From Acidimicrobiia bacterium (GTDB lineage: Bacteria > Actinomycetota > Acidimicrobiia > Spongiisociales > ZC4RG35), in the NCBI GenBank assembly GCA_965248705.1, contig CBDFJY010000002.1:919095-983094 (forward strand): a stretch of 64,000 nucleotides of DNA. Reading direction: 5' to 3'. Shown piece by piece: positions 8,729 to 27,000 of this stretch. The number at the start of each line of letters is the position of its first letter. Positions within the stretch are counted from its first letter, which is position 1. The notes beneath the pieces were generated by a model, which was not told the origin of the DNA, made no database searches, and was given only the letters and a program-made list of their open reading frames with translations. The position numbers and the translations under genes are program-made.

Positions 8729-8767
8729 GAGCGCGGGCAGGACGGGTTTGTCGTCCTGCCCCGCGCT
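8729..8767 (+). promoter_or_regulatory. Intercistronic stem-loop, copy 2
   Basis: GAGCGCGGGCAGGACG...CGTCCTGCCCCGCGCT. A C>A change on the 5' arm is matched by G>T on the 3' arm relative to copy 1. Confidence 0.5.
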
Positions 8768-8812
8768 TCGGCCTGTAGGTAAAGGACCGCGAGGGCGAGG
8801 AAGAGAGATACA

Positions 8813-9763: not shown

Positions 9764-9776
9764 GCAAGGAGGAACC

Positions 9777-10553
9777 ATGTCAACTGTTGTGAACTTTGAG
9801 AACCTGTGGTGTGTATTCGAGCACCGATCCGGGCAATTGGTGCATGCCCTTGAAGACGTCACTTTCCAGGTCGATCCCGGGGAGTTTGTGTGCGTGGTGG
9901 GGAGGTCCGGGCATGGTAAGACCACCCTGCTGAGGGTGTTGGCCGGGCTTCAGCCTCCCACCGCCGGCTATGCCAAGCTGGGCGACACCGCGGTGACGGG
10001 GCCGGGTAGCGACCGGGCCATGGTTTTTCAGCAGGACACGGTGTTCCCCTGGTTGCATGTCCGCGAGAATGTTGAGTTTGGCCTCAGGGCCAACAAGGTT
10101 CCGGATAAGGAGCGGAACGAGATCGCCGATTACTGGTTGGAGGCGGTGGGATTGGAGGATTTCGCCGACTCTTGGCCGCGGGAGCTTTCTGGGGGTATGA
10201 GAAAGCGGGTGGCCTTGGCGGCGGCGATGGCGGTGGGCTCGGATGTTGTCCTTATGGATGAGCCTTTTGGGTCTGTTGATTATTTCACGCGCCGCAATCT
10301 TCATGAGGTTCTTTTGAACCTGTGGTTTGAGACCCGCAAGACCATCTTTTTTGTCACCCATGACATTGAGGAGGCGCTGATTCTTGCTGACCGGGTGATC
10401 CTCTTGGCCGAGGGCAAGCTGGTGGACGATATCGCGGTTTCTCTCCCTCGTCCTCGTAACGAGGATGTCCGGGCTACCCCCGAGGCGGTGAGTGTGTTCA
10501 AGCTGATCCTCGCGCATCTGGGCATCACCGAAGAGGAGGCGACGAAGGCTTGA
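9777..10553 (+). CDS. ABC transporter ATP-binding protein, copy 2 (identical to copy 1)
   Basis: Protein and nucleotide sequence identical to 3776..4552. Confidence 0.9.
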   Translation: MSTVVNFENLWCVFEHRSGQLVHALEDVTFQVDPGEFVCVVGRSGHGKTTLLRVLAGLQPPTAGYAKLGDTAVTGPGSDRAMVFQQDTVFPWLHVRENVEFGLRANKVPDKERNEIADYWLEAVGLEDFADSWPRELSGGMRKRVALAAAMAVGSDVVLMDEPFGSVDYFTRRNLHEVLLNLWFETRKTIFFVTHDIEEALILADRVILLAEGKLVDDIAVSLPRPRNEDVRATPEAVSVFKLILAHLGITEEEATKA

Positions 10554-11770: not shown

Positions 11771-11858
11771 GGCCCGCGCCGCGGAATAACGTCCGCGACA
11801 GGTGCCGCGTCGGGATTGACCATCCTGGGTTCTTTCCGTATAAGAAGCTGTCAACCAG

Positions 11859-12761
11859 TTGCTGACCGGCATCATCTTCGGGTTTATCACCGCGGTGACG
11901 CTGGGCATCAACCAGCTGCTCACTGCAGTGGTGGCCCGGCGCTTCGGCGTGCTGCGCTCCACTGCCATCACTGTGACCCTTGCCCTCTTGGTGATGGTCG
12001 CCTGGGCAATCATCATTCAGGTGCCGCTCGAGATCACCGCCGACCATGTGATCCTCTTGGTCCTGTTGGGTTCCTGTGTCGGCGGGACCTTTCTGTGTGG
12101 GTACACGGCTCTCCGACTCGGTCCGATCTCGGTGGTGAGCCCGATCGGCGCTCTGGGAGGCGCCATGACAGTGGTTTACTCGTTCTGGTTGTTGGGGGAA
12201 AGACCCGGCGCGGTGCAGTGGGCGGGAATACCGGTCGCGGTACTGGGAGCAGTGTTGGCATCCCTGGTGATCGAACGCGGGACCAAGATTCGACTGGTCA
12301 CTTTGGGGCCGGTCTTCGCCTTGATCGGCGTCCTGGTCGGGTCGATCTCCAACGCCGGCCTGAAGATCCCCATCAGGGATGGGGTGGATTCTAACCTCAC
12401 CGTCATCACCCAACGGGTCTTCACGGTGGCTGTCGTTCTTTTGGTGTTGGTAATTGTCCCCAGGGTGACAGAACGTCGACGAAGAAGAGACGCCCGGCAC
12501 GGGGGGAGAGATCCGGTGAAGATCACCTGGAGGACAGGATGGCTGCTGGGCTTGGTGGGATTGATCGACGCCGTCTCCTTCATATCATTCGGATACGGCC
12601 TGGCGTACGCACCGGCCTGGCTAATCGGAATTATCTCCCAAAGCGGACGGGTAATAGCCGTGATCGGCGGGGTGATGTTCTTCAACGAACGACTCCACCA
12701 ACTGCAATGGACAGGCGTAGCCTTGGTAATGGTCGGGGTGGCAATGTCCATCGCCGGCTAG
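11859..12761 (+). CDS. EamA/DMT transporter, copy 2
   Basis: Paralogue of 5860..6756, TTG start. Confidence 0.65.
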   Translation: MLTGIIFGFITAVTLGINQLLTAVVARRFGVLRSTAITVTLALLVMVAWAIIIQVPLEITADHVILLVLLGSCVGGTFLCGYTALRLGPISVVSPIGALGGAMTVVYSFWLLGERPGAVQWAGIPVAVLGAVLASLVIERGTKIRLVTLGPVFALIGVLVGSISNAGLKIPIRDGVDSNLTVITQRVFTVAVVLLVLVIVPRVTERRRRRDARHGGRDPVKITWRTGWLLGLVGLIDAVSFISFGYGLAYAPAWLIGIISQSGRVIAVIGGVMFFNERLHQLQWTGVALVMVGVAMSIAG

Positions 12762-12997
12762 CACCGCGGCCCGAGGAGGTACTCGTTGAGGGATTCAAGA
12801 AGGTCGTTGGTCGGATGCCACAATGCACGGGAAAGTGAACAGATGTCAGCAGGGTGGCCGGGGCGGAAGGAGCAGGAGGCCGCGGTGAAACTCTCGACGA
12901 CGGATAGGGCTTCGGACGCGGAATCGGCGTTCGCGGTCGAGCGGCCAATCGGGATTGGTCAGCCTGGCTTTTCCCTGTATGTGAAGCTGTCAACCAG

Positions 12998-13903
12998 GTG
13001 TTGACCGGCATCATCTTCGGGTTTATCACCGCGGTGACGCTGGGGATCAACCGCCTGCTCACTGCTGTGGTGGTACGGCGTTTCGGCGTGCTGCGCTCTG
13101 TCTCCGTCACTGTGACTCTGGCTTGCTTTTTGATGATGGCCTGGGCGGCGCTGATCGGTGTGCGAGTCGAGATGAATGCCGACCACCTGATCCTCCTGGT
13201 CCTGTTGGGCTCCTGTGTCGGCGGGGCCTTTCTGTGCGGTTACATGGCTCTCCGGGTCGGTCCGATCTCGGTGGTGAGTCCGATCGGCGCTCTGGGAGGC
13301 GCCATGACGGTGGTCTACTCCTTTTGGCTGCTGGGAGAGAGACCCGGCGCGGTGCAGTGGGCGGGAATACCGGTCGCGGTACTGGGAGCGGTGTTGGCGT
13401 CCCTGGTTATCCAGCGGGGGACCAAGATTCGACTGGTCACTTTGGGGCCGGTCTTTGCCTTGACCGGCGTGCTGGTGGGATCGATCTCCAACGCCGGCCT
13501 GAAGATCCCCATAAGGGATGGGGTGGATTCCAACCTCACCGTCATCACCCAACGGGTCTTCACGGTGGCTGTCGTCCTCTTGGTGTTTGTGATCTTCTCC
13601 CGGGTGATAGAACAACGACGACGAAGGGGAGATCCCCGGTACGAGGGGAGCCACCCGGTGAAGATCACCTGGCGGACGGGATGGCTGCTGGGTTTGGTGG
13701 GACTGATCGACGGCGCCTCCTTCATATCCTTCGGATATGCTCTGGCGCATGCACCTGCTTGGCTGATCTCGGTTATCTCCCAAACCGGACGGGTTATAGC
13801 CGTGATCGGCGGGGTGATGTTCTTCAACGAACGACTCCACAGCCTGCAGTGGACAGGCGTAGCTCTAATAAGCGTTGGAGTGGTGATGTCCATCGTCGGT
13901 TAG
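12998..13903 (+). CDS. EamA/DMT transporter, extra tandem copy (2b)
   Basis: Paralogue of 11859..12761. Preceded by a degenerate copy of the permease-2 3' tail. Confidence 0.65.
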   Translation: MLTGIIFGFITAVTLGINRLLTAVVVRRFGVLRSVSVTVTLACFLMMAWAALIGVRVEMNADHLILLVLLGSCVGGAFLCGYMALRVGPISVVSPIGALGGAMTVVYSFWLLGERPGAVQWAGIPVAVLGAVLASLVIQRGTKIRLVTLGPVFALTGVLVGSISNAGLKIPIRDGVDSNLTVITQRVFTVAVVLLVFVIFSRVIEQRRRRGDPRYEGSHPVKITWRTGWLLGLVGLIDGASFISFGYALAHAPAWLISVISQTGRVIAVIGGVMFFNERLHSLQWTGVALISVGVVMSIVG

Positions 13904-14245: not shown

Positions 14246-15085
14246 TCAGTTCTCGGGGAAGGTGTACTGGAATACCCCGCCGGTGCGGATCATCTCGGCA
14301 GCGATGGCGTCGGCGTGGTCGATGAATCGGCGGAGCATGGCGTTGATTTGGTCCGGCACGTCTTGGAGTGCGCGATGTCCGGCGCCGACCGGTCTGCCGA
14401 TCACCACTTGGGGGCACAGCTCGCGGAGCAGGTCCAAGTCGAGGCGGGGTTGGCCGCAGTCAATGTACAGATACGGGCATTTCACTCCGGCCAGCACCGG
14501 CGCGGGATCGAAGCTGCTCATTCCATGCCAGCCGTTGAGGATCACGTGGTCGGGAACTTGCGCGAGCCGCGCGGCCATGGTTCCTACCCGGGAGGGGTCG
14601 TCGGTGGGCAGATAGGAGGCGCGAAGAAATCCGCGCAATGTCTCCCGGAAGGGGAGATCCTTTTGCATGAGGTGATCGAAGGGTCCGTGATGGTACTTCT
14701 GCCATCCGGGGATGTTGCTGGGCGAGTCGAGGCTGGCGATGGCGCTCACCAGTTCGGGATGGCGGGCGGCGGCCGAGATGATCACCTGTCCTCCCATGCT
14801 CTGGCCCACCAGCACGGGCCGATTCAGTTCCAGTTGGCGGATGAGTTCGGCCACGTCATCGCCGTGTTGGGCCATGGTGTAGGTCTCATCGGGCTTGTCG
14901 CTTTCCCCGTGGCCGCGCAGATCGACCGCCACGCACCGGTGATTGGGGGAGAAGTACTCCTCCTGGAAGCCGAAGCCTTCCCGATTGCCGAAGCCCCCGT
15001 GGATGAAAATGATGGCCGGATCGCCGGAGCCTAATTCGTGGTACGCAATGCGGTCGCCGTCGGGGGTAGTAATCCATTCAGTCAT
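14246..15085 (-). CDS. Alpha/beta-fold hydrolase, paralogue 1
   Basis: HG oxyanion motif IFIHGGFG, nucleophile elbow GQSMGG, C-terminal catalytic His in GAGH; 279 aa. Confidence 0.8.
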   Translation of the reverse strand: MTEWITTPDGDRIAYHELGSGDPAIIFIHGGFGNREGFGFQEEYFSPNHRCVAVDLRGHGESDKPDETYTMAQHGDDVAELIRQLELNRPVLVGQSMGGQVIISAAARHPELVSAIASLDSPSNIPGWQKYHHGPFDHLMQKDLPFRETLRGFLRASYLPTDDPSRVGTMAARLAQVPDHVILNGWHGMSSFDPAPVLAGVKCPYLYIDCGQPRLDLDLLRELCPQVVIGRPVGAGHRALQDVPDQINAMLRRFIDHADAIAAEMIRTGGVFQYTFPEN

Positions 15086-15388: not shown

Positions 15389-17002
15389 TTGGTCGACAGC
15401 CGTTGGCCCGACGAGCAAGCGAGCGGAAGGAAAGCGCAAACGAGGAAATTCATATCAGCTATTTCTCTGGTGGCTATCTTGGCGTTGTTGGCTGCGGCCT
15501 GCGGCGACGGCGCGGCGGATACGGCTGCTGCGGACGCGGCTGTTGCTCAGGCCGAAGCCGCTGAGGCTGAGGCTGCTGCCAAGGAAGCCGACGAGGCCCA
15601 GAAGGCTCTGGAAGGGTCGATGATGGTGGAGGCCCCCGAGATTCGGGAAGCCGAGGTTGCGATGGGTTTCAACGCCTGTTGTGCCGATATGGCTTTTTGG
15701 CAGATTCCCGTCGAGTTGGGCTGGTGGGATGATTTGAATATCACCATCGTTCCCAATTCGTCCACCTATTACTATTTCGCCGCCGGCGCCGAGGCCATCG
15801 CCTGGTTGCGGAGCGGTGAAGGCGCCGTGGCCCCTGGGTGGGTGCCGGGACTGTTCGGGTCGTTGGAGACCTTTGCTCAGGAAGTCCCGCCGATTTTCTT
15901 CGCGGACATCTATGTCGGCTATGCGGTCCTGGTTGCGCCGGATAGTCCCTCCAAGACTGTGCTTGAGTTCGTGGAGGAAGGGATGTCTTTCCCGGAAGCC
16001 GCCTTGGCGGCCGTCCAGCAGTTGGTAGGGGCGGATATTTACATTTCGCCCAGCACCCAGCAGGCTCAGTACATGGATGCGTTCTTCGCTTATCTGCCCG
16101 AGTGGTGGGAGGCTTATCAGGAGGACATTCCCGCTTTGGACGAGGATGGCAACCCTCTGGTGTTGTTGGGCCGCGACGGCGAGCCACTTCTGGACGAGGA
16201 CGGCAGCGTTCAGCCGATTCGGATCACGACCAACGACTGGCGTAACTATGCCAACCCGCAGTACGTCCATGACCCCACGATCCTGGCGCTTTCGGCTGTT
16301 CCGGGCCGGATCGAGTACGCCATGCCTTATAGCGCTCCGACCCTGGTGCAGATGATGCGCAACGGTTGGGATCCGCTGATCAACTTCGGGATGATGTTCG
16401 AGAATGATCCGGTCTCCCAGCAGACGGCGATCGCCAACTCCACTGTCGGCGGTATAGGCCTGCTAGCGAACCGCGAATGGGTCAATAACAACAAGGACCT
16501 GGCCTACAGGGTTCTCTCTGCCGCCTATCGTACCTTTGAGTTCCTCGATGATCCTGAGACCCAGTACCAGGGGTGGGAGATCGAGGCCAATCTCATCAAC
16601 GAGAAGCGCCAGTTGAGCATGGAGCCTGAGGACATCGGGATCATCTGGTCGACCATCGATCCCTCCTTTAACTGGGAGGAGCAGGCGGCGCTGTGGGACT
16701 TGAACCTCCCGAGCTACCACCCCGAGATAGTGTTCGTCACTCAGATCGAGAAGCTGAAGGCCAAGGGGGTGTTGTCCGAGGACTATGACACGCAGGCCGG
16801 GCTGAAAGAGTTCTTGTTGGCCCAGGACCTCTACTATGAGATGAAGGAATTCGAGACGCGCTCCGACGCACTATTCGAGAGAGCTTCGGGAAGAGATCTT
16901 TCCCCGGCCCAGGCCGCTTTAATCGCCCAGGCGCAGTTCCACTATGACATCTATAACTTCTACGACGCTCTCCGCTTCTTGGAGGCTGCCCTTATCGGGT
17001 AG
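15389..17002 (+). CDS. Substrate-binding lipoprotein of ABC cassette 3
   Basis: Paralogue of copy 1. The ancestral ATG is mutated to ACG, so an upstream ATG at 15389 gives a longer signal n-region. Shorter low-complexity linker. Confidence 0.5.
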   Translation: MVDSRWPDEQASGRKAQTRKFISAISLVAILALLAAACGDGAADTAAADAAVAQAEAAEAEAAAKEADEAQKALEGSMMVEAPEIREAEVAMGFNACCADMAFWQIPVELGWWDDLNITIVPNSSTYYYFAAGAEAIAWLRSGEGAVAPGWVPGLFGSLETFAQEVPPIFFADIYVGYAVLVAPDSPSKTVLEFVEEGMSFPEAALAAVQQLVGADIYISPSTQQAQYMDAFFAYLPEWWEAYQEDIPALDEDGNPLVLLGRDGEPLLDEDGSVQPIRITTNDWRNYANPQYVHDPTILALSAVPGRIEYAMPYSAPTLVQMMRNGWDPLINFGMMFENDPVSQQTAIANSTVGGIGLLANREWVNNNKDLAYRVLSAAYRTFEFLDDPETQYQGWEIEANLINEKRQLSMEPEDIGIIWSTIDPSFNWEEQAALWDLNLPSYHPEIVFVTQIEKLKAKGVLSEDYDTQAGLKEFLLAQDLYYEMKEFETRSDALFERASGRDLSPAQAALIAQAQFHYDIYNFYDALRFLEAALIG

Positions 17003-17135
17003 GCTTCCGGTTCGATTGCCTAGTGGCAAAAAAAAGCGCCGCTCCGGCCTGTAAGCAGGACTGCGAGGAAGAGAGAGCGGCGGCGCATCGCCAGAAACGG
17101 CGCCGCCAAATCACCGAGGAGGAGGCGACGAAAGC

Positions 17136-18353
17136 TTGAACCAACCAGCCCTCTTCCGACGTCTGTTCTGGGTTGGGTGGCTGATCTGGGCTGTCCTGAT
17201 TCCGTGGTTGCTTATTCAGTTGCCGGAAAGCCTTCCTTTCGTTACCTGGACGCATGGTGAGGGTGTGATCAACGTCACGTGGTCTTATATCGTTTCCGGG
17301 TTGGTGTTGTTCTGGGCTTGGCCGGTTGTGTTCCGCACGACCCGGTTCAAGGACCGTCTGGTCAGGGCGGGGCGGGGGATAGCGGCGGGGCCGCCGATGC
17401 TGTGGGCTGGTATGCGCCGTAGCCCGCTCTTCTTCGTCTCTTGGGTGGTGTTGCTGGTGGCGTGGCAGGTGGCGTCTTATGTTGCGCCTCCGGGAATTCT
17501 CGAGCATCCCCTGGTTCCCGGATGGGACTACGTGTTCGGTGACACCTTCTTCGGATTGTCCGGGTACTGGACCGTCCGCGTGTTGGACCTTGGGTTCGCG
17601 ACCTTCCATCTCGACGGACTGGCGCCGCTTCCCATCTATGGTGGGGAGGAGACCTGGCCGGCCGTGTTCCTCGCAATCGCTTATCACTCCGGTACGACCC
17701 TTTTCAGGCTGTTGTGTGGCATGGTGGTCGGCGTGACGCTCGGTCTCCTGACCGGTCTGGGCCTTCCCTACTGGCCGGCGGTGCGCCAGACCGCGTGGGC
17801 GCCCATGAACTTCCTGCGGATGATCCCCCTCCTAGTGGCGATTCCCTGGTTGCAGTTCGCCGTGGGCTCCAGCCTCACTGGTATCACCCTCTATATCGCC
17901 TTCGGGGTGTGGACGACGCTGGTGGTGGCCACCATGAATGCGGTAGCCAACGTGCCCGACCGGTACATCGAAAGCGCCCGTACCCTGGGCGCCTCCCGGC
18001 CGCGCACCTATTTCAAAGTGATAGTGCCGGGGTCGATTCCAGAACTGCGCACCGCCATGCTGCTCGCCATGGGAGGGAGCTGGTCGCTGGCGATCGCCGC
18101 CGAGTTCCTGGGTTTCTCCGCCGGGCTGGGGTACATGGCCAACGGGGCGGTGCAGGAAACCAACACCGCCCGGCTGTTGATAGTGGCGTTCATCGTGGCT
18201 CTTTATTCTCTCACGACTTTCTTCTTGCTCAACGAGGGATTCAAAAAGGCCGTTAGCTGGATGCCCCAGCGTACCACCAGGGGGCCGGACATCGCTAAGG
18301 TGGCCGGGGCGGCAGGAGCGGCAGGCCCCGTCGAAACCCTGGAAGACAGATAG
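17136..18353 (+). CDS. ABC transporter permease 2, copy 3
   Basis: Paralogue of 4549..5772. Permease 1 and the ATPase are missing upstream. Confidence 0.7.
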   Translation: MNQPALFRRLFWVGWLIWAVLIPWLLIQLPESLPFVTWTHGEGVINVTWSYIVSGLVLFWAWPVVFRTTRFKDRLVRAGRGIAAGPPMLWAGMRRSPLFFVSWVVLLVAWQVASYVAPPGILEHPLVPGWDYVFGDTFFGLSGYWTVRVLDLGFATFHLDGLAPLPIYGGEETWPAVFLAIAYHSGTTLFRLLCGMVVGVTLGLLTGLGLPYWPAVRQTAWAPMNFLRMIPLLVAIPWLQFAVGSSLTGITLYIAFGVWTTLVVATMNAVANVPDRYIESARTLGASRPRTYFKVIVPGSIPELRTAMLLAMGGSWSLAIAAEFLGFSAGLGYMANGAVQETNTARLLIVAFIVALYSLTTFFLLNEGFKKAVSWMPQRTTRGPDIAKVAGAAGAAGPVETLEDR

Positions 18354-18428
18354 GACCCGCTTGCAGTTGGGCGGTGCGTCGGGACCTAGGCGCCATGGCC
18401 TCTTTCCGTTTATGAAGCTGTCCACGGG

Positions 18429-19325
18429 GTGCTGACCGGCGTCATCTTCGGGTTTATAACCGCGGTGACGCTGGGGATCAACAGTCTGCTCACTGCCGTA
18501 GTGGCGCGGCGCTTCGGCGTGCTGCGCTCTGCTGCCGCCACGCTGACGCTGGCTCTCTTGGTGATGGTCGCCTGGGCAATCCTCATCGACGTGCCGCTCG
18601 AGATGACCACCGACCATCTGATCCTCTTGACCTTTCTGGGCACCTGCGTCGGCGCCTCCTTTCTGGGCTCCTATATGGCCCTCCGACTGGGCCCGATCTC
18701 CGTGGTAACACCGATCGGCTCTCTGGGGACCGCGATGACAGTGGTCTACTCCTTTTGGCTGCTGGGGGAAAGACCCGGTGCCTTGCAGTGGGCGGGAATA
18801 CCGATCGCCGTGCTGGGAGCAGTACTGGTATCGCTTGTAATCAAACGCGGGACCAGGGTTCGACTGGTCACCTGGGGACCGGTCTTCGCGTTGATCGGCG
18901 TATTCGTAGGATCGATCTCCAACGCCGGCCTGAAGATCCCCATCAGGGACGGAGTCGACTCCAACCTGACCGTAATCACCCAACGGGTCTTCACAGTGGC
19001 CTTCGTCCTGTTGGCGTTGGTGGTTTTCTCCCGGCTGGGATTACGGCGTCGGCGAGAGGGAGATGACCCTCAGTACCCGATGAGGATCACCTGGAAGACA
19101 GGATGGCTCTTGGGCCTGGTGGGACTGATCGACGGCGTCTCTTTCATATCATTCGGATACGGATTGGCCTACGCACCGGCCTGGTTGATCGCGATCATCT
19201 CCCAAAGCGGAAAGGTGATAGCCGTAATCGGCGGGGTGATCTTCTTCAAGGAACGACTCCACCGACTTCAGTGGACCGGCGTGGGGCTGATAATGGTCGG
19301 CGTGATGATGTCCCTCGTCGGCTAA
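18429..19325 (+). CDS. EamA/DMT transporter, copy 3
   Basis: Paralogue of 5860..6756, GTG start. Confidence 0.65.
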   Translation: MLTGVIFGFITAVTLGINSLLTAVVARRFGVLRSAAATLTLALLVMVAWAILIDVPLEMTTDHLILLTFLGTCVGASFLGSYMALRLGPISVVTPIGSLGTAMTVVYSFWLLGERPGALQWAGIPIAVLGAVLVSLVIKRGTRVRLVTWGPVFALIGVFVGSISNAGLKIPIRDGVDSNLTVITQRVFTVAFVLLALVVFSRLGLRRRREGDDPQYPMRITWKTGWLLGLVGLIDGVSFISFGYGLAYAPAWLIAIISQSGKVIAVIGGVIFFKERLHRLQWTGVGLIMVGVMMSLVG

Positions 19326-19660: not shown

Positions 19661-20500
19661 TCAGTTCCCGGGAAAGGTGTATTGGAATACTCCGCCGGTA
19701 CGGATCATCTCGGCGGCGATGGCGTCGGCGTGTTCGATGAATCGGCGCAGCATGGCGTTGATCTGGTCCGGCACTACCTGGAGGGCTCCATGTCCGGCGC
19801 CGACCGGTTTGCCGAACACCACTTGGGGGCACAGTTCGCGGAGCAGGTCCAGGTCGATGCGAGGCTGTCCGCAGTCAACATATAGATAAGGGCACTCTAT
19901 GCCTGCCAGTATCGGCGCGGGATCGAAGGCGCTCAACCCGTGCCAGTCGCTGAGGATCACGTGGTCGGGAACTTGGGCCAGCCGCTCGGCTGTGTTCTTG
20001 GCGCGGGTCGGGTCGTCGGTGGGCAGGTGGGAGGCGCTGAGAAACCCGACCAGCGTGTCCCGGAAGGGTAGGTCCTTTTGCATCAGGTGATCGAAGGGTC
20101 CGTGATGGTACGCGGTCCACCCGGGGATGTTGCTGGGAGAGTCCAGGCTGGCGATCGCTCCGACGAGGTGGGGATGGCGGGCGGCGGCGGAGATGATTAC
20201 CTGTCCTCCCATGCTCTGGCCGACCAGCACCGGCCGGTTCAGTTCCAGTTGGCGGATGAGTTCGGCAACATCATCGCCGTGCTGTTCCATGGTGTAGAGA
20301 TGATCGGGCTTGTCGCTTTCCCCGTGGCCGCGCAGATCGACCGCGATGCAGCGGTGATTGGGGGAGAAGTACTCCTCCTGGAGGCCGAATCCTTCCCGAT
20401 TGCCGAAGCCGCCGTGGATAAGGATGATGGCCGGATCGCCTGCACCCACCTCGTGGTATGCAATGCGGACGCCGTCGGAGGTGGTGATCCATTCGGTCAT
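19661..20500 (-). CDS. Alpha/beta-fold hydrolase, paralogue 2
   Basis: Same motifs as paralogue 1. Confidence 0.8.
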   Translation of the reverse strand: MTEWITTSDGVRIAYHEVGAGDPAIILIHGGFGNREGFGLQEEYFSPNHRCIAVDLRGHGESDKPDHLYTMEQHGDDVAELIRQLELNRPVLVGQSMGGQVIISAAARHPHLVGAIASLDSPSNIPGWTAYHHGPFDHLMQKDLPFRDTLVGFLSASHLPTDDPTRAKNTAERLAQVPDHVILSDWHGLSAFDPAPILAGIECPYLYVDCGQPRIDLDLLRELCPQVVFGKPVGAGHGALQVVPDQINAMLRRFIEHADAIAAEMIRTGGVFQYTFPGN

Positions 20501-20573
20501 GTGCCGTAGCGTAGTTGTCGGGGTCTCATAGACGGCTAGGGACAGGTCACTATGACGGCTTCGGGTGCAATCC

Positions 20574-21413
20574 CTATGTGGAGGGGAAGGTGTATTGGAA
20601 GACGCCGCCGGTGCGGATCATCTCGGCGGCGATGGCGTCGGCGTGTTCGATGAACCGCCGAAGCATGGCGTTGATTTGGTCCGGCACCACCCGGAGGGCC
20701 CCATGTCCGGCGCCGACCGGTTTGCCGACCACCACTTGGGGGCACAGTTCGCGGAGCAAGTCCAGATCGACGCGCGGCTGTCCGCAGTCGACGTACAGAT
20801 AAGGGCACTTCACCCCAGCCAGCAACGGCGCGGGATCAAAGGCCATCATCCCCTGCCAGCCGTTGAGGATCACATGGTCGTCAAGCCGGGCCAGCCGCGC
20901 CGCTGTGTTCTTGGCGCGGGTCGGGTCGTCGGTGGGCAGATGGGCGGCGCTGAGGAAGAGTTCCAGCGCCTTCCGGAAGTCTTGGTCCTTTCGCATGAGG
21001 TGATCGAAGGGTCCGTGATGGTAGGCGTGCCATCCGGGGATGTTGCTGGGCGAGTCGAGGCTGGCGATGGCGCCCACCAGTTCGGGATGGCGGGCGGCGG
21101 CCGAGATGATCACCTGTCCCCCCATGCTTTGTCCCACGAGGACTGGCCGATCCAGATCCAGTTGGCGGATAAGTTCGGCCACATCGTCGCCGTGTTGTTC
21201 CATGGTGTAGAGCTCATCGGGTTTGTCGCTTTCGCCGTGCCCGCGCAGATCGACGGCGATGCAGCGGTGATTGGGGGAGAAGTACTCCTCCTGGAGGCCG
21301 AAGCCTCCCCGATCGCCGAAGCCGCCGTGGATAAGGATGATGGCCGGGTCGCCAGCGCCCAGTTCGTGGTAGGCGATGCGGACGTCATCGGAGGTGGTGA
21401 TCCATTCAGTCAT
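20574..21413 (-). CDS. Alpha/beta-fold hydrolase, paralogue 3
   Basis: Same motifs (GQSMGG, GAGH). Confidence 0.8.
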   Translation of the reverse strand: MTEWITTSDDVRIAYHELGAGDPAIILIHGGFGDRGGFGLQEEYFSPNHRCIAVDLRGHGESDKPDELYTMEQHGDDVAELIRQLDLDRPVLVGQSMGGQVIISAAARHPELVGAIASLDSPSNIPGWHAYHHGPFDHLMRKDQDFRKALELFLSAAHLPTDDPTRAKNTAARLARLDDHVILNGWQGMMAFDPAPLLAGVKCPYLYVDCGQPRVDLDLLRELCPQVVVGKPVGAGHGALRVVPDQINAMLRRFIEHADAIAAEMIRTGGVFQYTFPST

Positions 21414-21542
21414 GTCACTCAGCTTAGGTTGTCAGCCCGGCAGGGGAGGGCGAAACGGCGCCAGGAAATTGGTGCTCCAGTTGGCGTTATACGCCCGTCC
21501 GGCGTTCGCCGGTCCCAAGTGAGCGGTGTTCGCCGCGGGTCC

Positions 21543-22385
21543 TTATGTGGAGGGGAAGGTGTATTGGAATACTCCGCCGGTGCGGATCATTTCGGCGGCG
21601 ATGCCGTCGGCGTGTTCGACGAATCGGCGGAGCATGGCGTTGATCTGGTCCGGCACGTCCTGGAGGGCCCGATGTCCAGCGCCGACCGGCTTTCCGATCA
21701 CCACCTGGGGGCACAGCTCACGGAGCAGATCCAGGTCGAGATCCGGCTGACCGCAGTCGATGTACAGGTAGGGACACTTCACCCCGCGCAGCGTGGGTGT
21801 GGGGTCGTAATCGGCCTTGCCCCGCCAAGTGTTGAGGATCAACTTGTCGGAAACTTCGGCGAGCCGTGCGGCCATGGTGCCCACCCGGGAGGGGTCGTCG
21901 GTAGGCAGATAGGCGGCTTTGAGGAACGTGTAGAGTGTTTCGCGGATAGGGGGGCCGTCCTTGCTCATCAGGGGTTGGTAGGGACCGTGAAAACGCTGGT
22001 GCCACCCGGGGATGTTGCTGGGCGAGTCCAAGCTGACGATCGCCCCCACCAGTTCGGAGTGGCGGGCGGCGGCAGCGATCACCACCTGTCCGCCCATGCT
22101 CTGGCCCACCAGCACGGGCCGATGCAGCCCCAGGTGGCGGATGAGATCTGCCACGTCATCCCCGTGTTTGTCCATGGTGTAGGGCTCATCGGGCTTGGCG
22201 CTGTCGCCGTGGCCACGCAGGTCGACCGACACGCACCGGTGATTGGGCGAGAAGTACTCCTCCTGGAAGCCGAATCCTCCCCGCTTGCCGTAAGCGCCGT
22301 GGATGAAGAGGATGGCCGGGTCGCCGGCGCCCACCTCGTGGTAGGCAATGCGCACCCCGTCGGAGGTGGTAATCCATTCAGTCAT
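21543..22385 (-). CDS. Alpha/beta-fold hydrolase, paralogue 4
   Basis: Start set at the conserved MTEWITT (ATG 22385). The longer reported ORF is an upstream over-extension. Confidence 0.75.
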   Translation of the reverse strand: MTEWITTSDGVRIAYHEVGAGDPAILFIHGAYGKRGGFGFQEEYFSPNHRCVSVDLRGHGDSAKPDEPYTMDKHGDDVADLIRHLGLHRPVLVGQSMGGQVVIAAAARHSELVGAIVSLDSPSNIPGWHQRFHGPYQPLMSKDGPPIRETLYTFLKAAYLPTDDPSRVGTMAARLAEVSDKLILNTWRGKADYDPTPTLRGVKCPYLYIDCGQPDLDLDLLRELCPQVVIGKPVGAGHRALQDVPDQINAMLRRFVEHADGIAAEMIRTGGVFQYTFPST

Positions 22386-22450
22386 GTCACTGAGCTTAGG
22401 GTGTCGTGTCGCGGTGTGGCACCAACACTTTTCGTCTGTTTTTGTCAAAG

Positions 22451-22640
22451 GTTGTGAAACAAATCGCTGTTGGGGGGTTGATTCTGTTCCCCGGGGAGTT
22501 CATATTGATACAAGCCAAACACCAAGACGGTCCGCCCAGGCGTCGTTCGGGCCGCGTCGAGGGATCAAATGTCCTTATTCAACCAGCCCTGTTCCGGGCT
22601 GGACGAGTCTGTTCGACCCATGGCAAGGTGGTGGTGGGGG
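22451..22640. repeat. Conserved ~200-nt non-coding element, copy C
   Basis: Homologous to copies A and B. Here it lies between two hydrolase genes rather than after an EamA gene. Confidence 0.45.
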
Positions 22641-22870
22641 AGGGCCCAGGGAAGCTTTTTCGCGACTTTTCTGCCATGATCAACGACTGCCGTTCGCATA
22701 ACCAGGCACCCCAGACCACCCACCCGGTCGCTACATCTCAGAAACAACTGAGCTTAGGGTGTCCGCCCGGGACGAGGGTGAACGGCGACAGCTTATTGGT
22801 GCCTGAGTTGGCGTGAAGCACCGGAGTGCCGGTCGCCGGGTCGAACGGATCGGCGTTGCCGCGCGGGTTC

Positions 22871-23710
22871 TCATGTGGAGGGGAAGGTGTATTGGAATAC
22901 CCCGCCGGTGCGGATCATTTCGGCGGCGATGCCGTCGGCGTGTTGGATGAAGCGGTTGAGCATGGCGTTGATCTGGTCCGGCACGTCCTTGGTGGCCTGA
23001 TGACCGGCGCCCACCGTTTTGCCGATCACCACCTGGGGGCAGAGCTCGCGGAGCAGATCGAAGTCGAGACCGGGTTGGCCGCAGTCGATGTAGAGATAGG
23101 GGCACTTCACCTGGCGCAGTACCGGCGCCGGATCAAAGGCGCTCATTCCCTGCCAGCCGTTCACGATCACATGCCCTGGAACCTCGGCCAGCCAGTCTGG
23201 CATTTCCCCGACCCGCGACGGGTCGTCGGTGGGCAGATAGGCGGCGCTGAGGAAGGTTTGCAGCGCCTCCCGGAAGGGGCCGTCCTTGGTCATCAGGTGG
23301 TCGAACGGACCATGAAAGCGCCGGTGCCATCCGGGGATGTTGCTGGGCGAGTCCAGGCTGGCGATCGCCCCCACCAGTTCGGGATGGCGGGCGGCTACGG
23401 AGATGACCACCTGTCCGCCCATGCTGTGACCAACCAGGATAGGCCGCCGTATCCCCAGATGGCGAAGCCATTCGGCAGCCTCATCGGCGTATTTGTCCAT
23501 GGTGTAGAGTTCATCGGGCTTGTCGCTGTCGCCGTGGCCACGCAGGTCGATAGCCAGACACCGGTGATTGGGCGAGAAGTATTCCTCCTGGAATGTGAAA
23601 CCAGTCCGGTTGCCGAACCCGCCGTGGATGAAGACGATGGGCGGATCGCCGGCGCCCGCCTGGTGGTAGGCGAGGCGTACGCCGTCGGAGGTGGTGATCC
23701 ATTCAGTCAT
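22871..23710 (-). CDS. Alpha/beta-fold hydrolase, paralogue 5
   Basis: GHSMGG variant of the nucleophile elbow. Confidence 0.8.
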   Translation of the reverse strand: MTEWITTSDGVRLAYHQAGAGDPPIVFIHGGFGNRTGFTFQEEYFSPNHRCLAIDLRGHGDSDKPDELYTMDKYADEAAEWLRHLGIRRPILVGHSMGGQVVISVAARHPELVGAIASLDSPSNIPGWHRRFHGPFDHLMTKDGPFREALQTFLSAAYLPTDDPSRVGEMPDWLAEVPGHVIVNGWQGMSAFDPAPVLRQVKCPYLYIDCGQPGLDFDLLRELCPQVVIGKTVGAGHQATKDVPDQINAMLNRFIQHADGIAAEMIRTGGVFQYTFPST

Positions 23711-23840
23711 GTCACCGAGCTTAGGGTGTCAGCCTGGAAGGGAAGGTGAGCGGCTGCGCCATGTTGATCTCCGAGTCGGCGTGAAACACTGGACTGCCGG
23801 ATGGCCGGTCCGAACGAACGGCGTTCGGCGCTGGGGCCTC

Positions 23841-24680
23841 TTATGTCGAGGGGAAGGTGTATTGGAATACTCCGCCGGTGCGGATCATTTCAGCGGCTAT
23901 GGCGTCGGCGTGTTCGATGAATCTGCGGAGCATGGCGTTGATCTGATCCGGCACGTCCTTGGTGGCGGCGTGACCGGAGCCCACCGTTTTGCCGACCACC
24001 ACCTGGGGGCACAGCTCACGGAGCAGATCGAAGTCGAGATACGGCTGGCCGCAGTCGATGTAGAGATAGGGGCATTTCACCTGGCGCAGTACTGGAGCCG
24101 GATCGAAGGAGCTCAATGCCCACCACGCTCTGGTGATTACATGGTCGGGAAACCCGGCCAGCCGCTCCGTGATTCCCGCGACTCGCGATGGGTCGTCGGT
24201 GGGCAGATAGGCGGCGCCGAGGAAAGTTTCCGCTGCTTCCCGGAAGGGACCGTCCCTGGTCATCAGGTGGTCGAAGGGGCCACTAAAGCGTCTCTGCCAT
24301 CCGGGGATATTGCTGGGCGAGTCCAGGCTGGCGATCGCCCCCACCAGTTCGGGATGGCGGGCAGCCGCGGAGATGACCACCTGTCCGCCCATGCTGTGAC
24401 CCACCAGGATGGATCGGCGGAGACCGAGTTGGCGGATCAGCTCGGCCACGTCGTCGGCGTGTTTGGCCATCGAATAGACCTCGTCGGGTTTTTCGCTGTC
24501 GCCGTTGCCGCGCAGGTCGACCGCCACGCACCGGTGATTGGGCGAGAAGTACTCCTCCTGGAAGCCGAAGCCTCCCCGATTGCCGTAGATACCGTGGATG
24601 AAAACAATGGGTGGATCCCCGGCGCCCACTTGGTGGTAGGCGATGCGTACACCGTCGGGGGTGGTGATCCATTCAGTCAT
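23841..24680 (-). CDS. Alpha/beta-fold hydrolase, paralogue 6
   Basis: Start set at the conserved MTEWITT (ATG 24680); GHSMGG. Confidence 0.75.
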   Translation of the reverse strand: MTEWITTPDGVRIAYHQVGAGDPPIVFIHGIYGNRGGFGFQEEYFSPNHRCVAVDLRGNGDSEKPDEVYSMAKHADDVAELIRQLGLRRSILVGHSMGGQVVISAAARHPELVGAIASLDSPSNIPGWQRRFSGPFDHLMTRDGPFREAAETFLGAAYLPTDDPSRVAGITERLAGFPDHVITRAWWALSSFDPAPVLRQVKCPYLYIDCGQPYLDFDLLRELCPQVVVGKTVGSGHAATKDVPDQINAMLRRFIEHADAIAAEMIRTGGVFQYTFPST

Positions 24681-24745
24681 GTCGCCGAGCTTAGGTATCC
24701 GGGTGATCAACCCCGCAGACAGTCAATTCCCGGCAGCCCGGGTGG

Positions 24746-25759
24746 CTAGAGCGCCAATCGCTCGGCCAGTTGGACGGCGTTGAGCGCCGCGCCCTTGCGG
24801 AGGTTGTCGCCCACGACCCACAGGTTGATGCCCCCGGGTGTCCCCACCGTTTCCCGCACCCGGCCCACCAGGGCACGGTCCGTCCCGGCGCTGTCCAGAG
24901 GAGTGGGCGGGATGTCCTCCCAGACCTCCACCCCGGGGGCGGCGGAGAGGATTTCCAGCGCCTCCTCTCGGCCCAGCGCACGGTCGAACCACACCGAGGC
25001 GGCTAGACCGTGGCCGACCATCACCGGCACCCTCACGCAGGTCGGCTCCACGGCCAACTCCGCCAAATCAAGAATTTTGCGGGACTCGTGTATCAGCTTC
25101 CACTCCTCGTCGGTATAGCCCTGCCCAGTCTCCGAGCCGGCCATGGGCAGCACGTTGAAGCCGATGGGGCGGCTGTAGACCTCGCCTCCCGGGTCAATCC
25201 ATTTTCCTTGCACCAGGCCGGAGCGATCACTCCGGAAGTGGTCGATCTGGGCAGATAGCTCGGTCATCCCCTTCTGGCCCGAGCCCGAAACCGACTGATA
25301 GGAGGTGGCCACCATCGAACGGAGCCCCGCCTCCCGATGGAGAGGGGCGACCGCCATCATCAACACCATGGTGGTGCAGTTGGGGTTGGCCACAATTCCC
25401 CGATGTGACCCCAGGGCATGGTCGTTCACATCCGCCACCACCAGCGGAACTGTCGGATCCATCCGGAAACAGGACGAATTGTCGACTACTACCGCCCCAG
25501 CGGAGACAAAGCGGGGGGCGTGTGCACGTGATCGGGAGGCGCCGGCTGAGAAGATCGCCAATTCGATTCCCTCGGGATCGGCCTCATGCAAATCTTCCAC
25601 CTCGACTTCTCCCCAAGCGGTGGAGATCTTCTGTCCGGCCGAGCGCGCCGAGGCCATAAGCCGCAGCCGGCCGACGAGGAAATCCCGGTCGGCCAGGATA
25701 TCCAACGCCGTCCGGCCCACCGCTCCGGTGGCGCCCACCAAGGCCAGGTCGACGCTCAT
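24746..25759 (-). CDS. asd: Aspartate-semialdehyde dehydrogenase
   Basis: [15 protein letters not shown] Rossmann N-terminus, active-site Cys region. Start overlaps the lysC stop (ATGA). The reported ORF over-extends upstream. Confidence 0.9.
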
Positions 25760-27000
25760 GCCCCCCGCTCCTCTCGGATCAGGGGGGGCCTGAACTCGCG
25801 GTGAAGCGCCTGGACGGCCTTGTTCATCTGGGATTGATCTACCACACAGGAGATTCTGATAGTGGAGGTGGAGATCATCTCGATGTTGATCCCGGCCCTG
25901 CCCAATGTCCGAAACACCCGGGCCGCCACGCCCGGCTCGGTTTTCATGCCTGCTCCTATCAGCGACACCTTGGCGATGTCGTGGCGAATCTCCACCCCGG
26001 AGGCCTTCACCTGCCGCCCGATCAACCTGACCACCTCTCCCGCCCATTCCGTGGAATCTTTGGGAATGGTGAAGCTGATGTCGGACAGACCCTCTCGGGA
26101 GACGTTCTGCACGATCATGTCAACGTTCACGCCTGCCGTCGCCAGGGGCTCGAAGACGGAAGCCGCCACACCGGGCTGGTCGGGGACTTCCCGCAAGGTG
26201 ACCTTCGCCTCCGAGGCGTCGTGGGCTATTCCGCTGATTATGGCTTGTTCCATGCGCTCCATATCGGTCGCCTTTCTTATCCAAGTGCCGGGCAGGCCGG
26301 TAAAAGAGGATCGTACGTGGATGGGGACGCCGTATCGACGCCCCACCTCCACCGCCCGGGGAATGAGCACGCCCGCTCCCCCGGCGGCCAATTCCATCAT
26401 TACCTCGTAGGAGACCTCTTCCAGCTTCTGGGCTTCGGGGACTATCCGGGGATCGGCAGTCATCACCCCGGAAACATCTGTGTATATCTCGGCTACATCG
26501 CCTCCCAGAGCCGCAGCCAGCGCCACCGCGCTGGTATCGGAGCCTCCCCTGCCCAGGGTGGTGATCTCCTTCGATCGGGGGTTCACCCCCTGGAACCCCG
26601 CCACGATCACCACCTTCCCCTCGGCGAGATTGTCGGTTACCCGAACACCCGTTATCCCCTGGATCTTGGCCGCCCCATGAGTGTCGTCGGTGAGAATTCC
26701 GGCCTGGCTGCCGGTGAGGCTCACCGCCTCCACGCCATGGGCGGCGATGGCCATGGCAGTCAGGGCAATGGAAATGCGTTCCCCGGCAGAAAGCAGCATG
26801 TCCATCTCTCGGGCCGGCGGGCTGGCGTTCACTTCCCGGGCCAGGTTAACCAGGTTGTCGGTGGTGTCTCCCATGGCGGAGACCACCACCACCACCTGCG
26901 CGCCGGTCCGGCGGGCGTTCACCACCCGGGCGGCGACGTTTTTGATTCGCTCGGGGGTGGCGAGGGAAGATCCGCCGAATTTCTGTACGATCCGCGACAT
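25756..27000 (-). CDS. lysC: Aspartate kinase
   Basis: [13 protein letters not shown]..., amino-acid kinase fold plus two C-terminal ACT domains. Start chosen at the conserved N-terminus. Confidence 0.9.

Follow-up and report, generated by a model that had tools for sequence, protein, structure and literature searches.

In the actinobacterium Rhodococcus jostii RHA1, an ABC importer, PatDABC, is coupled with a monoalkyl phthalate hydrolase, PatE, according to PMC10973024, which cites Hara et al. (2010). Other described systems resemble parts of the locus analyzed here. Small carboxylesterases and cofactor-free haloperoxidase-perhydrolases (Pseudomonas fluorescens aryl esterase, 1VA4; chloroperoxidase F, 1A8S; Thermogutta terrifontis esterase, 4UHC) share with its hydrolases a length of ~275 aa, the fold, a helical cap, a Ser-Asp-His triad, an HG oxyanion motif and the S-M-G-G run after the nucleophile. 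The NitT/TauT importers TauABC, SsuABC, NrtABCD and ThiXYZ share with its transporter a short ATPase, TauC/SsuC/NtrB-like permeases and the presence of NMT1/NMT1_2 in distant relatives of the receptor. The locus lies in a 64,000-nucleotide stretch of DNA (the window) and combines seven alpha/beta-hydrolase genes with cassettes of transporter genes (Table 1). With modest confidence, we lean towards reading it as a locus for substrate acquisition that is conserved in, and specific to, a lineage of sponge-associated Acidimicrobiia. Import would there be followed by hydrolysis, and the compounds harvested are probably a group of related small esters or lactones.

Table 1. Coordinates of the hydrolase genes, transporter cassettes and neighboring features in the window
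Feature	Coordinates	Strand	Remarks
Cassette 1	943..6756	+	lipoprotein binding protein 943-2685, permease 2812-3762, ATPase 3776-4552, permease 4549-5772, EamA 5860-6756; Pfam BPD_transp_1, ABC_tran, EamA
Cassette 2	6930..13903	+	binding protein 6930-8687, permease 8813-9763, ATPase 9777-10553, permease 10550-11770, EamA 11859-12761, second EamA 12998-13903
Noncoding element, further copy	13928-14120		hydrolase/EamA convergent junction
H6	14246..15085	-	GQSMGG; between cassettes 2 and 3; hexamer 15093-15098
Cassette 3, partial	15389..19325	+	binding protein 15389-17002, permease 17136-18353, EamA 18429-19325
Noncoding element, further copy	19349-19540		hydrolase/EamA convergent junction
H1	19661..20500	-	GQSMGG; ends row, convergent with EamA; hexamer 20508-20513
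H2	20574..21413	-	GQSMGG; open reading frame and translation; hexamer 21421-21426
H3	21543..22385	-	280 aa; GQSMGG; open reading frame and translation; hexamer 22393-22398
Conserved noncoding element, ~190 nt	22446..22640	-	H4-H3 gap
H4	22871..23710	-	GHSMGG; orthologues at most 95% identical; hexamer 23718-23723
H5	23841..24680	-	asd-proximal, ancestral position 1; GHSMGG and GSGH
-10-like hexamer TAAGCT	24688..24693	-	13 nt before H5 ATG
asd (aspartate-semialdehyde dehydrogenase)	24746..25759	-	NCBIfam NF011456, 407 bits (cut-off 223)
lysC (aspartate kinase)	25756..27000	-	NCBIfam NF005155, 538 bits (cut-off 346)
tRNA-Gly(CCC)	53064-53135		53 nt downstream of H7
H7, dispersed paralogue	53189..54037	-	282 aa; GQSMGG and GSGH; beside tRNA-Gly(CCC); hexamer at -16

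All seven hydrolase genes are intact, encode 279 to 282 aa and lie on the minus strand. The layout given in the first-pass annotation (a row of five genes behind lysC-asd, a sixth between cassettes and a seventh at tRNA-Gly) agrees with the open reading frames, and the coordinates confirm its 65-nt same-strand spacer between asd and H5. Pairwise amino acid identity among the seven copies, put there at 65 to 90%, was measured at 66 to 88%. Order and strand in the five-gene row are head to tail as described, but the row is broken by a gap of 485 nt between H4 and H3, compared with 65 to 130 nt for the other spacers, that between asd and H5 included. The GQSMGG or GHSMGG nucleophile elbow is present in all seven, whereas the GAGH motif of the catalytic His is replaced by GSGH in H5 and H7. 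The ATG of H3 lies 3 nt further upstream than that of a 279-aa gene would. The tRNA-Gly(CCC) gene is also found ~60 nt downstream of the H7 orthologue in six of the seven loci scanned in other species, and ~1.2 kb away in the remaining one (L042).

A Pfam profile search and a neighbor-joining tree placed the seven copies in one monophyletic family, not in unrelated sub-families, and the family is restricted to sponge-associated Acidimicrobiia (Ca. Spongiisociaceae and relatives). Scores for Abhydrolase_1/6 exceed the threshold (82 bits for Abhydrolase_1 in H1), and the Ser96-Asp209-His237 triad and the HG oxyanion motif are invariant among 136 family copies. Outgroup homologues (Dehalococcoidia and others) are 31 to 43% identical. 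A C-terminal tail, AAEMIRTGGVFQYTFP, is clade specific and nearly invariant; it is missing from outgroup homologues of 42 to 44% identity and occurs in partial form in one relative of 47% identity. No signal peptide was found, the hydrolase sequence beginning directly at strand 1, and in the mechanism proposed below the enzymes would be cytoplasmic.

The AlphaFold2 model of H1 (pLDDT 92.5) has a helical cap at approximately residues 128 to 198. Its closest solved structures in Foldseek (TM 0.75 to 0.79, 19 to 26% identity) include the P. fluorescens aryl esterase, the Thermogutta esterase, non-heme chloroperoxidases, an enol-lactonase and Est816, with aryl esterases at 0.78. Thus, small aryl esterases/perhydrolases and lactonases of the alpha/beta fold come nearest to the predicted fold. 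In a profile search against solved structures, the N-acyl-homoserine lactone (AHL) lactonases Est816 (4e-26) and AidH (2e-24) matched over the full length. No NCBIfam equivalog was reached by the hydrolases (best, 72 bits; cut-offs, 241 to 300), and therefore no substrate can be transferred by homology.

The best full-length solved matches, which include both these lactonases and cofactor-free haloperoxidases/perhydrolases, are compatible with a possible, if unlikely, alternative, namely that the hydrolase array and the cassettes are functionally independent neighbors in a plastic chromosome region. The transporter would then import something unrelated, and the hydrolases would have substrates that are endogenous or diffuse freely, such as AHLs (quorum quenching) or general short-chain esters, or would be perhydrolases. 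Substrates of AHL lactonases and perhydrolases need no ABC importer. Identity to the lactonases, however, is only ~25%.

Far from being confined to this assembly, the array is present in ~35 loci of Acidimicrobiia associated with sponges and corals. In the neighbor-joining tree, copies group by array position across species and not by genome. H5 falls together with the gene at the start of the array in every related genome. H4 has its orthologues at array position 2 in seven loci (L001, L002, L003, L005, L007, L013 and L022) and as the first gene of a captured row in L008. H3 is 94% identical to position 3 of L002 (96% in the cap alone), and H2 is 97% identical to position 4 of L002 and 95% identical to position 5 of L001. 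Six window copies out of seven are closer to an orthologue in another genome (90 to 97%) than to any window paralogue (at most 88%); H6 is a near-tie, with an orthologue at 87% and its window paralogue H1 at 86%, and its counterpart in L002 is a remnant with an internal deletion. Within the cluster, dS is 0.41 to 0.78 and dN/dS is 0.18 to 0.32, while H7 forms a separate old clade with a dS of 1.1 to 1.4 to the cluster copies. The duplicates are old and held by purifying selection, and the ancestor of the family had about three copies, compared with five to seven in the window's subclade. We suggest that the array would have grown by birth-and-death tandem duplication.

These data bear on the explanation that the array reflects amplification, recent or still in progress, as a dosage response, or else is an artefact of assembling repeats. 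Although the genes are head to tail, equal in length and regularly spaced (913 to 970 nt), and neighboring transporter genes are multiplied too, we give this explanation almost no credence, given the dS values, the protein differences of 12 to 34% between copies, their orthology with other species and the presence of the same arrays in independent short-read and long-read assemblies of those species. Chance or assembly duplication of repeats is ruled out by the protein divergence and the independent assemblies. The description of the array as amplifying, if taken to mean recent or ongoing growth, does not hold, in view of its synonymous divergence, purifying selection and position-by-position orthology.

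Divergence is concentrated in the cap, where pN/pS is 0.53 to 0.55, compared with 0.18 to 0.27 in the rest of the protein; the cap/core divergence ratio is 2.1 between paralogue groups and 1.3 within groups. We propose that specialization of the paralogues may have taken place chiefly in the cap (lid), the domain that shapes the pocket for the substrate. Because alpha/beta-hydrolase caps are less constrained in general, part of this signal is expected without specialization.

The conserved partner of the array is the convergent NitT/TauT-type ABC importer with its EamA permease, not asd, and no feature of the arrangement is better conserved than this link. EamA and ABC genes follow the array convergently in 25 of the 27 loci that have at least 7 kb of flank. 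This adjacency spans deep divergence (hydrolase orthologues down to ~65% identity) and survives inserted insertion sequences and defense islands in some loci. In the window, L003 and L005, hydrolase genes and partial cassettes are interleaved. All of this argues against independent neighbors. Independence is favored by the acceptance of insertion sequences, defense genes and efflux genes between the region's parts, by the separate transcription units of the two convergent gene sets, and by the lack of such a transporter near H7 and the outgroup homologues of the hydrolases. That hydrolases and transporter are not co-transcribed counts against functional coupling; it is the conserved neighborhood, that is, synteny, that points to import followed by hydrolysis. 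Hydrolases, binding proteins and EamA permeases have all increased in copy number in the window's subclade, which also counts against independence. This joint increase amounts essentially to a single event in a single subclade and is not statistically independent evidence. The suggestion of one amplifying module is upheld as regards the conserved link and the joint rise in copy number, but not as regards present amplification.

By comparison, of 21 loci whose upstream flank spans at least 6 kb, only 7 have asd near the array. The lysC stop codon is overlapped by the asd ATG (ATGA). No terminator is predicted between asd and H5, and lysC-asd is upstream of the array in the window and in ten related loci (L001, L002, L005, L007, L008, L022, L025, L028, L030 and L033). 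Together with the short same-strand spacer and a weak match of H7 to MetX homoserine acyltransferase models (E ~3e-4), these last two observations would fit hydrolases that belong to a lysC-asd operon, are transcribed by read-through from asd and have as substrate an intermediate or derivative of the aspartate family, such as a homoserine ester or lactone. We hold this to be improbable: where asd is present, an IS607-like element (as in L025) or unrelated genes of the opposite strand (as in L007) can lie between it and the array, and the hydrolases, at 279 aa, are too short for MetX and score 18 to 20 bits against cut-offs of 296 to 500. A functional tie of the array to asd is thus unsupported.

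In addition, every hydrolase gene is preceded by its own -10-like hexamer, and read-through from asd, raised in the first-pass annotation, need not be invoked. Among 136 family genes, TANNNT starts at -13 in 91 and between -16 and -12 in 120, and it is almost absent elsewhere within 60 nt upstream. No Shine-Dalgarno sequence precedes the hydrolase genes, while the transporter genes have one. This pattern is in line with the -10 motif of actinobacteria and with the extensive leaderless transcription described for Mycobacterium tuberculosis (PMC3898074), and it suggests that each hydrolase gene is a separate leaderless transcript from its own promoter, which may permit separate regulation. Paralogy could contribute to the conservation of the hexamer. 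The noncoding element, whose copies were matched by nhmmer, has ~60 invariant columns (14 copies, nine genomes) and no match in Rfam; whether it is part of the hydrolase-importer module is uncertain.

In the complete cassettes, the ATPase gene stands between two permease genes that differ from each other. Cassette 3 lacks the first permease and the ATPase; its counterparts in L001 and L002 consist of a binding protein and EamA only, with a 35-aa permease relic in L002. The best NCBIfam matches of the ATPase and permeases are of the TauB/TauC/SsuC/NtrB type, all below equivalog cut-offs: the ATPase, which is without a C-terminal regulatory domain, scores best with TauB/SsuB/NrtCD, and the permeases with TauC/SsuC/NtrB. 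Judged from these profiles, the importer is a NitT/TauT-type ABC system. The binding protein has a lipobox (LLAAC|G), no direct match in Pfam, NCBIfam or PDB, and a structure model of low confidence (pLDDT 57). Operons of its distant relatives encode an ATPase together with one permease or two, always two where the contig is long enough, and a Paracoccus relative with the same four-gene order is annotated in RefSeq as an ABC substrate-binding protein. Through these relatives, the lipoprotein is predicted to be an NMT1-type binding protein, though a very divergent one. In related genomes, each copy of EamA and of the binding protein is matched, position by position, by orthologues of its own.

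We hypothesize that, in the acquisition locus that we favor, the binding-protein-dependent importer would take up a family of small polar compounds through its NMT1-like lipoprotein receptors, and that the convergently encoded hydrolases would then cleave an ester or lactone bond or, less likely, an amide. An EamA/DMT permease encoded alongside may serve for the export of one of the hydrolysis products or as a second way into the cell. The additional binding proteins and EamA copies appear to have diverged in parallel with the hydrolases, and the substrates are therefore probably several related compounds and not more of one.

Compared with the described esterases and haloperoxidases (1VA4, 1A8S and 4UHC), the window hydrolases, whose activity is predicted, differ in sequence (19 to 26% identity), in their tail and in forming a multi-copy array. 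With the AHL lactonases Est816 (5EGN) and AidH (4G5X) they share the G-x-S-x-G nucleophile and a similar size, but lactonase activity is not inferable at ~25% identity, and a conserved importer adjoins the window hydrolases, whereas AHLs need none. The window importer differs from known NitT/TauT systems in its gene order around the ATPase and its sub-equivalog scores, and its receptor in a ~110-aa Ala/Glu-rich linker and a large insertion. In its proposed logic, the locus resembles PatDABC and PatE as presented in PMC10973024: an actinobacterial host, binding-protein-dependent import of small carboxylate esters and a cytoplasmic hydrolase. It differs from that system in its many hydrolase paralogues, several binding proteins, EamA permeases and convergent arrangement, and in belonging to a sponge symbiont.

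Seven alpha/beta-hydrolase open reading frames, H1 to H7, were all found on the minus strand where the first-pass annotation had placed them, and they encode proteins of 279-282 amino acids with 66-88% pairwise identity. The motifs it had described were seen in the hydrolase copies as GQSMGG or GHSMGG and as GAGH or GSGH. The five copies said to lie in a row downstream of lysC-asd are indeed in place, although a 485-nt gap between H4 and H3 breaks the row. The spacer between asd and H5 is 65 nt, as had been claimed, and both asd and lysC were named by NCBIfam. At 25756-25759, lysC and asd overlap in an ATGA that holds the stop codon of the former and the start codon of the latter, a classic sign of translational coupling, here of a lysC-asd operon.

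Hydrolase paralogues and the lysC-asd genes in the window
Gene	Position	Strand	Remark
H5	23841-24680	minus	first after asd
H4	22871-23710	minus	
H3	21543-22385	minus	280 aa
H2	20574-21413	minus	
H1	19661-20500	minus	last of row
H6	14246-15085	minus	between cassettes 2 and 3
H7	53189-54037	minus	beside tRNA-Gly
asd	24746-25759		NCBIfam
lysC	25756-27000		NCBIfam

Matches to the Pfam families Abhydrolase_1 and Abhydrolase_6 lie above the gathering threshold (82.2 and 65.6 bits for H1, 61.1 and 55.9 bits for H7; cut-offs of ~26). The nucleophile elbow (G94-x-S96-x-G98), the acid D209 after a strand at 205-208, H237 and the oxyanion residues H29-G30 follow the canonical order, and S96, D209, H237, H29 and G30 are invariant in all 136 copies from 45 loci. 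An AlphaFold2 model (pLDDT 92.5, pTM 0.92) predicts a canonical eight-stranded core with a helical cap at residues ~128-198. Foldseek matched it best to small aryl esterases/perhydrolases, to an enol-lactonase and to Est816, a lactonase (TM 0.75-0.79, identity 19-26%), and a profile search of PDB sequences returned at the top, at full length, two AHL lactonases of the alpha/beta fold, Est816 and AidH, together with a putative aryl esterase. H1 to H7 belong to the alpha/beta-hydrolase fold superfamily. No signal peptide was found in the hydrolases.

Assignment to a named function was less successful, as the hydrolases approach none of the NCBIfam equivalogs (best 72 bits versus cut-offs of 241-300). 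The haloalkane dehalogenase model NF002938 is the top or second match, with 67-72 bits against a cut-off of 241 and over the N-terminal half only; this assignment fails because the nucleophile is Ser, not Asp, in all copies. Homoserine O-acyltransferase MetX was also rejected: its profiles (~350-380 aa, versus 279-282 aa for the hydrolases) are matched by H7 alone, at 18-20 bits versus cut-offs of 296-500.

All seven hydrolases carry a C-terminal tail, AAEMIRTGGVFQYTFP, at residues ~257-279 (19661-19732 in H1), which is clade-specific and nearly invariant among paralogues and orthologues. Outgroup homologues with 42-44% identity have no tail and end directly after the last helix, and a 47%-identical relative (P0108) has a partial one. 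Synonymous changes do occur in the tail, and therefore the constraint acts on the protein.

Homologues with more than ~60% identity were found in uncultured Acidimicrobiia only; several of these are named Ca. Spongiisociaceae or Spongiisocius, and many are metagenome bins from sponges or corals. After these, the nearest relatives come from Dehalococcoidia, Acidobacteriota, Rhizobiales and other groups, with 31-43% identity and a single copy per locus. That the arrangement might be unique to this assembly, a possibility raised in the first-pass annotation, did not hold: loci of the same family occur in other genomes (45 loci, 136 copies), with two to seven hydrolase copies per locus and a mode of three. 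The closest species in the genome collection are represented by loci L001 and L002; their orthologue of H1 matches it at 96% identity.

In a neighbour-joining tree of the 136 copies, the hydrolases group according to array position rather than genome of origin. The asd-proximal H5 type forms a single clade across the whole family, and two more clades hold, respectively, the middle and the last genes of arrays with three copies. Within the window's subclade, the last clade is split into the H2, H1 and H6 types plus one type without a member in the window, and the H4 type has arisen. In six of the seven window hydrolases, the nearest sequence is an orthologue from another species (90-97%) and not a window paralogue, of which none exceeds 88%; H6 comes close to a tie (87% for the orthologue, 86% for the paralogue).

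The amplifying module suggested in the first-pass annotation, if taken as a recent amplification, is not borne out, as near-identical copies were not seen. That the array arose by recent amplification or is an assembly artefact is extremely improbable, being contradicted by dS values of 0.41-0.78 among the clustered copies (1.1-1.4 to H7) and by the positional orthologues in other species. Between hydrolase copies, dN/dS is 0.16-0.32. The expansion instead represents birth-and-death evolution of maintained paralogues, and not concerted evolution. In L002, H6 corresponds to a remnant with an internal deletion (14141-14542), of which residues 1-118 and 253-279 alone are left, and the second permease survives as a 35-aa relic at 12026-12130; the two are direct evidence of gene death within the module.

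Divergence among the paralogues is concentrated in the cap. The pN/pS ratio is 0.53-0.55 in alignment columns 125-205, which cover the cap, versus 0.18-0.27 elsewhere. Different paralogue groups share 53% identity in the cap and 78% in the core (cap divergence 2.1 times that of the core), and members of one group share 89% and 91%, respectively (ratio 1.3). After the duplications, the cap changed and was subsequently held. Such a pattern would be expected for diverging substrate specificity, and some excess in the cap would be expected regardless, because alpha/beta-hydrolase caps are generally less constrained.

H7 constitutes a separate, stable locus. As the first-pass annotation had noted, it lies beside a tRNA-Gly gene; this tRNA-Gly(CCC) is 53 nt downstream of H7 and ~60 nt downstream of the H7 orthologue in six of the seven loci scanned from other species, the exception being L042, where the distance to the H7 counterpart is ~1.2 kb. 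No transporter was found near H7 in the window or in the scanned H7 loci of other species. Immediately upstream of H7 is a DUF222/HNH endonuclease gene, with a hydantoinase/oxoprolinase A and B pair a little beyond it (54226-55290 and 56793-60646, minus strand, for this gene and the pair).

Shine-Dalgarno-like sequences are present at the transporter genes and absent at the hydrolase genes. A TANNNT hexamer, mostly TAAGCT, starts at position -13 in 91 of the 136 family genes and between -16 and -12 in 120, and is nearly absent elsewhere in the 60 nt upstream; in the window it starts at -13 in all six clustered genes and at -16 in H7. The hexamer matches the actinobacterial -10 motif, which is centred 7-12 bp upstream of the transcription start, and fits the extensive leaderless transcriptome reported for Mycobacterium tuberculosis (PMC3898074). 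From the motif, we infer that each hydrolase paralogue probably has its own promoter and a leaderless mRNA, which would make read-through from asd unnecessary. A promoter and terminator consensus scan of the array gave nothing above shuffled expectation, and the spacers between genes show no more stable folding than shuffled sequences (z between -0.9 and +0.2). Among the 21 loci with enough upstream flank, asd is in range in only 7, and it is sometimes split from the array by mobile or unrelated genes. A functional tie of the hydrolases to lysC-asd, to which the window's short spacer might point, is poorly supported and very improbable.

On the plus strand, convergent with the array, the transporter cassettes are as originally described, two complete and one partial. 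The complete units consist of genes for a binding protein, a permease, an ATPase, a second permease and EamA, with an extra EamA gene in the second unit, and the partial unit consists of binding protein, permease and EamA. Among the 27 loci that extend at least 7 kb beyond the last hydrolase gene, EamA and ABC genes are convergent beyond the array in 25; in L017, the ABC genes have the other orientation. Genomes with three hydrolases have one cassette, and members of the window's subclade have five to seven hydrolases, two to three binding proteins and two to five EamA genes, the extra binding-protein and EamA copies being orthologous position by position. Because the extra units often comprise only a binding protein and EamA, the gene content suggests that additional receptors may feed a shared translocator.

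In relatives, the module region is an insertion hotspot. Mobile or defence insertions lie between its parts in L025 (5866-8048), L030 (12651-14737), L010 (3025-8895) and L009 (12996-16995), and the inserted elements are an IS607-like TnpB with a serine recombinase (assigned from ORF translations), IS21 (IstA/IstB), a TerB-BrxC/D-helicase island and a MacB/HlyD efflux system. The adjacency of array and transporter is kept despite the IS21, the IS607-like element, the TerB/BrxD/helicase island or the MacB efflux genes in some genomes.

Genes beyond the binding protein vary among related loci (peptide ABC transporter, SDR, DUF2165, deaminase), and a molybdenum hydroxylase adjoins in only four. 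In the window, the 3' end of such a gene, of the molybdopterin-dependent xanthine dehydrogenase/aldehyde oxidase family, lies at 24-812 (plus strand) directly upstream of the first binding-protein gene; the fragment is 91% identical to the L025 protein over 266 aligned amino acids. The same neighbour occurs in L010 (17562-20401), L025 (17951-20808) and L033 (18520-20745), preceded in L010 and L025 by a gene for a 2Fe-2S subunit, and is absent from the other related loci. In L047, a Dehalococcoidia outgroup with a 42%-identical hydrolase, such a pair lies ~5 kb away (10244-12360).

Tau, Ssu and Nrt components are the best matches of the cassette ATPase (210 bits with TauB, 198 bits with NrtCD) and of both permeases (TauC, SsuC and NtrB), all below the equivalog cut-offs, which places these proteins by family and no more closely. 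The binding protein is a lipoprotein with the lipobox LLAAC|G, an Ala/Glu-rich repeat linker and a domain of ~450 aa, for which direct Pfam, NCBIfam or PDB profile searches gave nothing meaningful and the AlphaFold2 model (pLDDT 57) was too poor for a fold search. Searching 1.84 billion representatives with a profile recovered 182 relatives (E values down to ~1e-60). Those of 440-470 aa carry NMT1 or NMT1_2 signatures, mostly below the gathering score, which 4 of 10 relatives reached (P0346 with 36.2 and P0272 with 27.5 bits for NMT1_2, P0265 with 27.0 and P0318 with 25.6 bits for NMT1). These 440-470-aa relatives are encoded in operons together with an ATPase and one or two permeases, both permeases being present wherever the contig reaches far enough, and a Paracoccus yeei plasmid has the same order of binding protein, permease, ATPase and permease, with the first named ABC substrate-binding protein in RefSeq. 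The cassettes therefore appear to encode a NitT/TauT-type importer with a very divergent receptor. The linkers, Ala/Glu/Gln-rich and ~110 aa long from lipobox to folded domain, are encoded by 21-nt (7-aa) repeats at 994-1278, 6996-7280 and 15458-15610, and their repeat content differs among the three binding proteins.

We lean towards an import-then-hydrolyse reading of the region, whose specialised hydrolases, receptors and EamA permeases would serve a family of small polar esters or lactones. The main alternative is a neighbourhood conserved without functional coupling, in which the hydrolases would be lactonases, perhydrolases or general esterases, the kinds of enzyme found among the structural matches; we consider the alternative possible, if rather unlikely. 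As hints to the substrate, the contexts of the hydrolases on Rhizobium and Acidisarcina plasmids, of the distant binding-protein relatives and of the Paracoccus operon revealed no common theme.

A conserved noncoding element of ~190 nt sits between the second and third hydrolase genes and at convergent hydrolase/EamA junctions. It occurs in the window at 22446-22640, 19349-19540 and 13928-14120 (minus-strand sense), in loci L001, L002, L003, L005, L007, L012, L013 and L022, and also in L033 (202-393), L037 (15247-15436) and L042 (16378-16581). It is also present at unrelated sites between genes, after murJ and next to the gene of a LigD primase-polymerase. About 60 columns are invariant across 14 copies. 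The element has no Rfam match at E values up to 10, and a metagenome pattern scan gave one match. RNAalifold predictions are weak on both strands (-10.8 and -14.8 kcal/mol), with few compensatory pairs and a conserved GGTCCG...CGGACC hairpin. The element could represent a dispersed repeat, a platform for protein binding or an sRNA. In the gap between H4 and H3, a 17-nt hydrolase leader motif, GACACCCTAAGCTCAGT (minus-strand sense), is present twice as a direct repeat (22389-22405 and 22747-22763), and the two copies flank the extra 341 nt that hold the element. The flanked segment looks like an insertion, or like the scar of a deletion, precisely at the start of a gene.

Members of the Spongiisociaceae group of Acidimicrobiia are uncultured and live widely in sponges, and their uptake from the host has largely been inferred from generic annotations. 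The locus, with its orphan-receptor ABC importer, EamA permeases and three to seven specialised esterase-like enzymes, is among the most conserved lineage-specific features of the group, and its genes are currently annotated merely as "alpha/beta hydrolase" or "hypothetical protein". It is also a clean case, provided by nature, of birth-and-death evolution in which divergence centres on the cap. Should the coupling be real, the three lipoprotein receptors and the seven soluble enzymes could be expressed and screened against sponge metabolites to name a substrate class that feeds the symbionts; if it is not, the locus represents an ordinary paralogue expansion. A symbiosis-specific pathway, in which small esters or lactones derived from the sponge are captured, imported and cleaved by matching hydrolases, is a more speculative proposal that we regard as unlikely. 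In such a pathway, the co-diversified orphan binding proteins would capture the substrates, with one variant of hydrolase, receptor and permease per substrate variant; the EamA permeases would return or remove one product, and the C-terminal tail and the 190-nt element would be parts of assembly or regulation. Such a pathway, if real, would constitute an as yet undescribed way for host and symbiont to exchange metabolites.

Among characterised enzymes, the AHL lactonases AidH and Est816 are the best full-length matches of the hydrolases among PDB sequences (profile E values of 2e-24 and 4e-26, respectively), and at ~25% identity they are too distant for specificity to be transferred. The group of cofactor-free haloperoxidases, perhydrolases and aryl esterases gives the top Foldseek match, and its S-M-G-G is present in the hydrolases. 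The oxyanion loop reads HGGFG, HGIYG, HGAYG or HGVYG and has no Trp, unlike that of the Pseudomonas fluorescens esterase, in which Trp follows HG. In the literature that we searched, neither this array nor Spongiisocius genomes are described. For the coupling of import to hydrolysis, a precedent is PatDABC/PatE of Rhodococcus jostii RHA1, an ABC importer coupled to an esterase (PMC10973024). The enzyme superfamily, tandem paralogue arrays, NitT/TauT importers and leaderless genes are all of already known kinds; what is new is a symbiont-restricted, uncharacterised hydrolase clade with a distinctive tail and its conserved pairing with an orphan-receptor importer and EamA.
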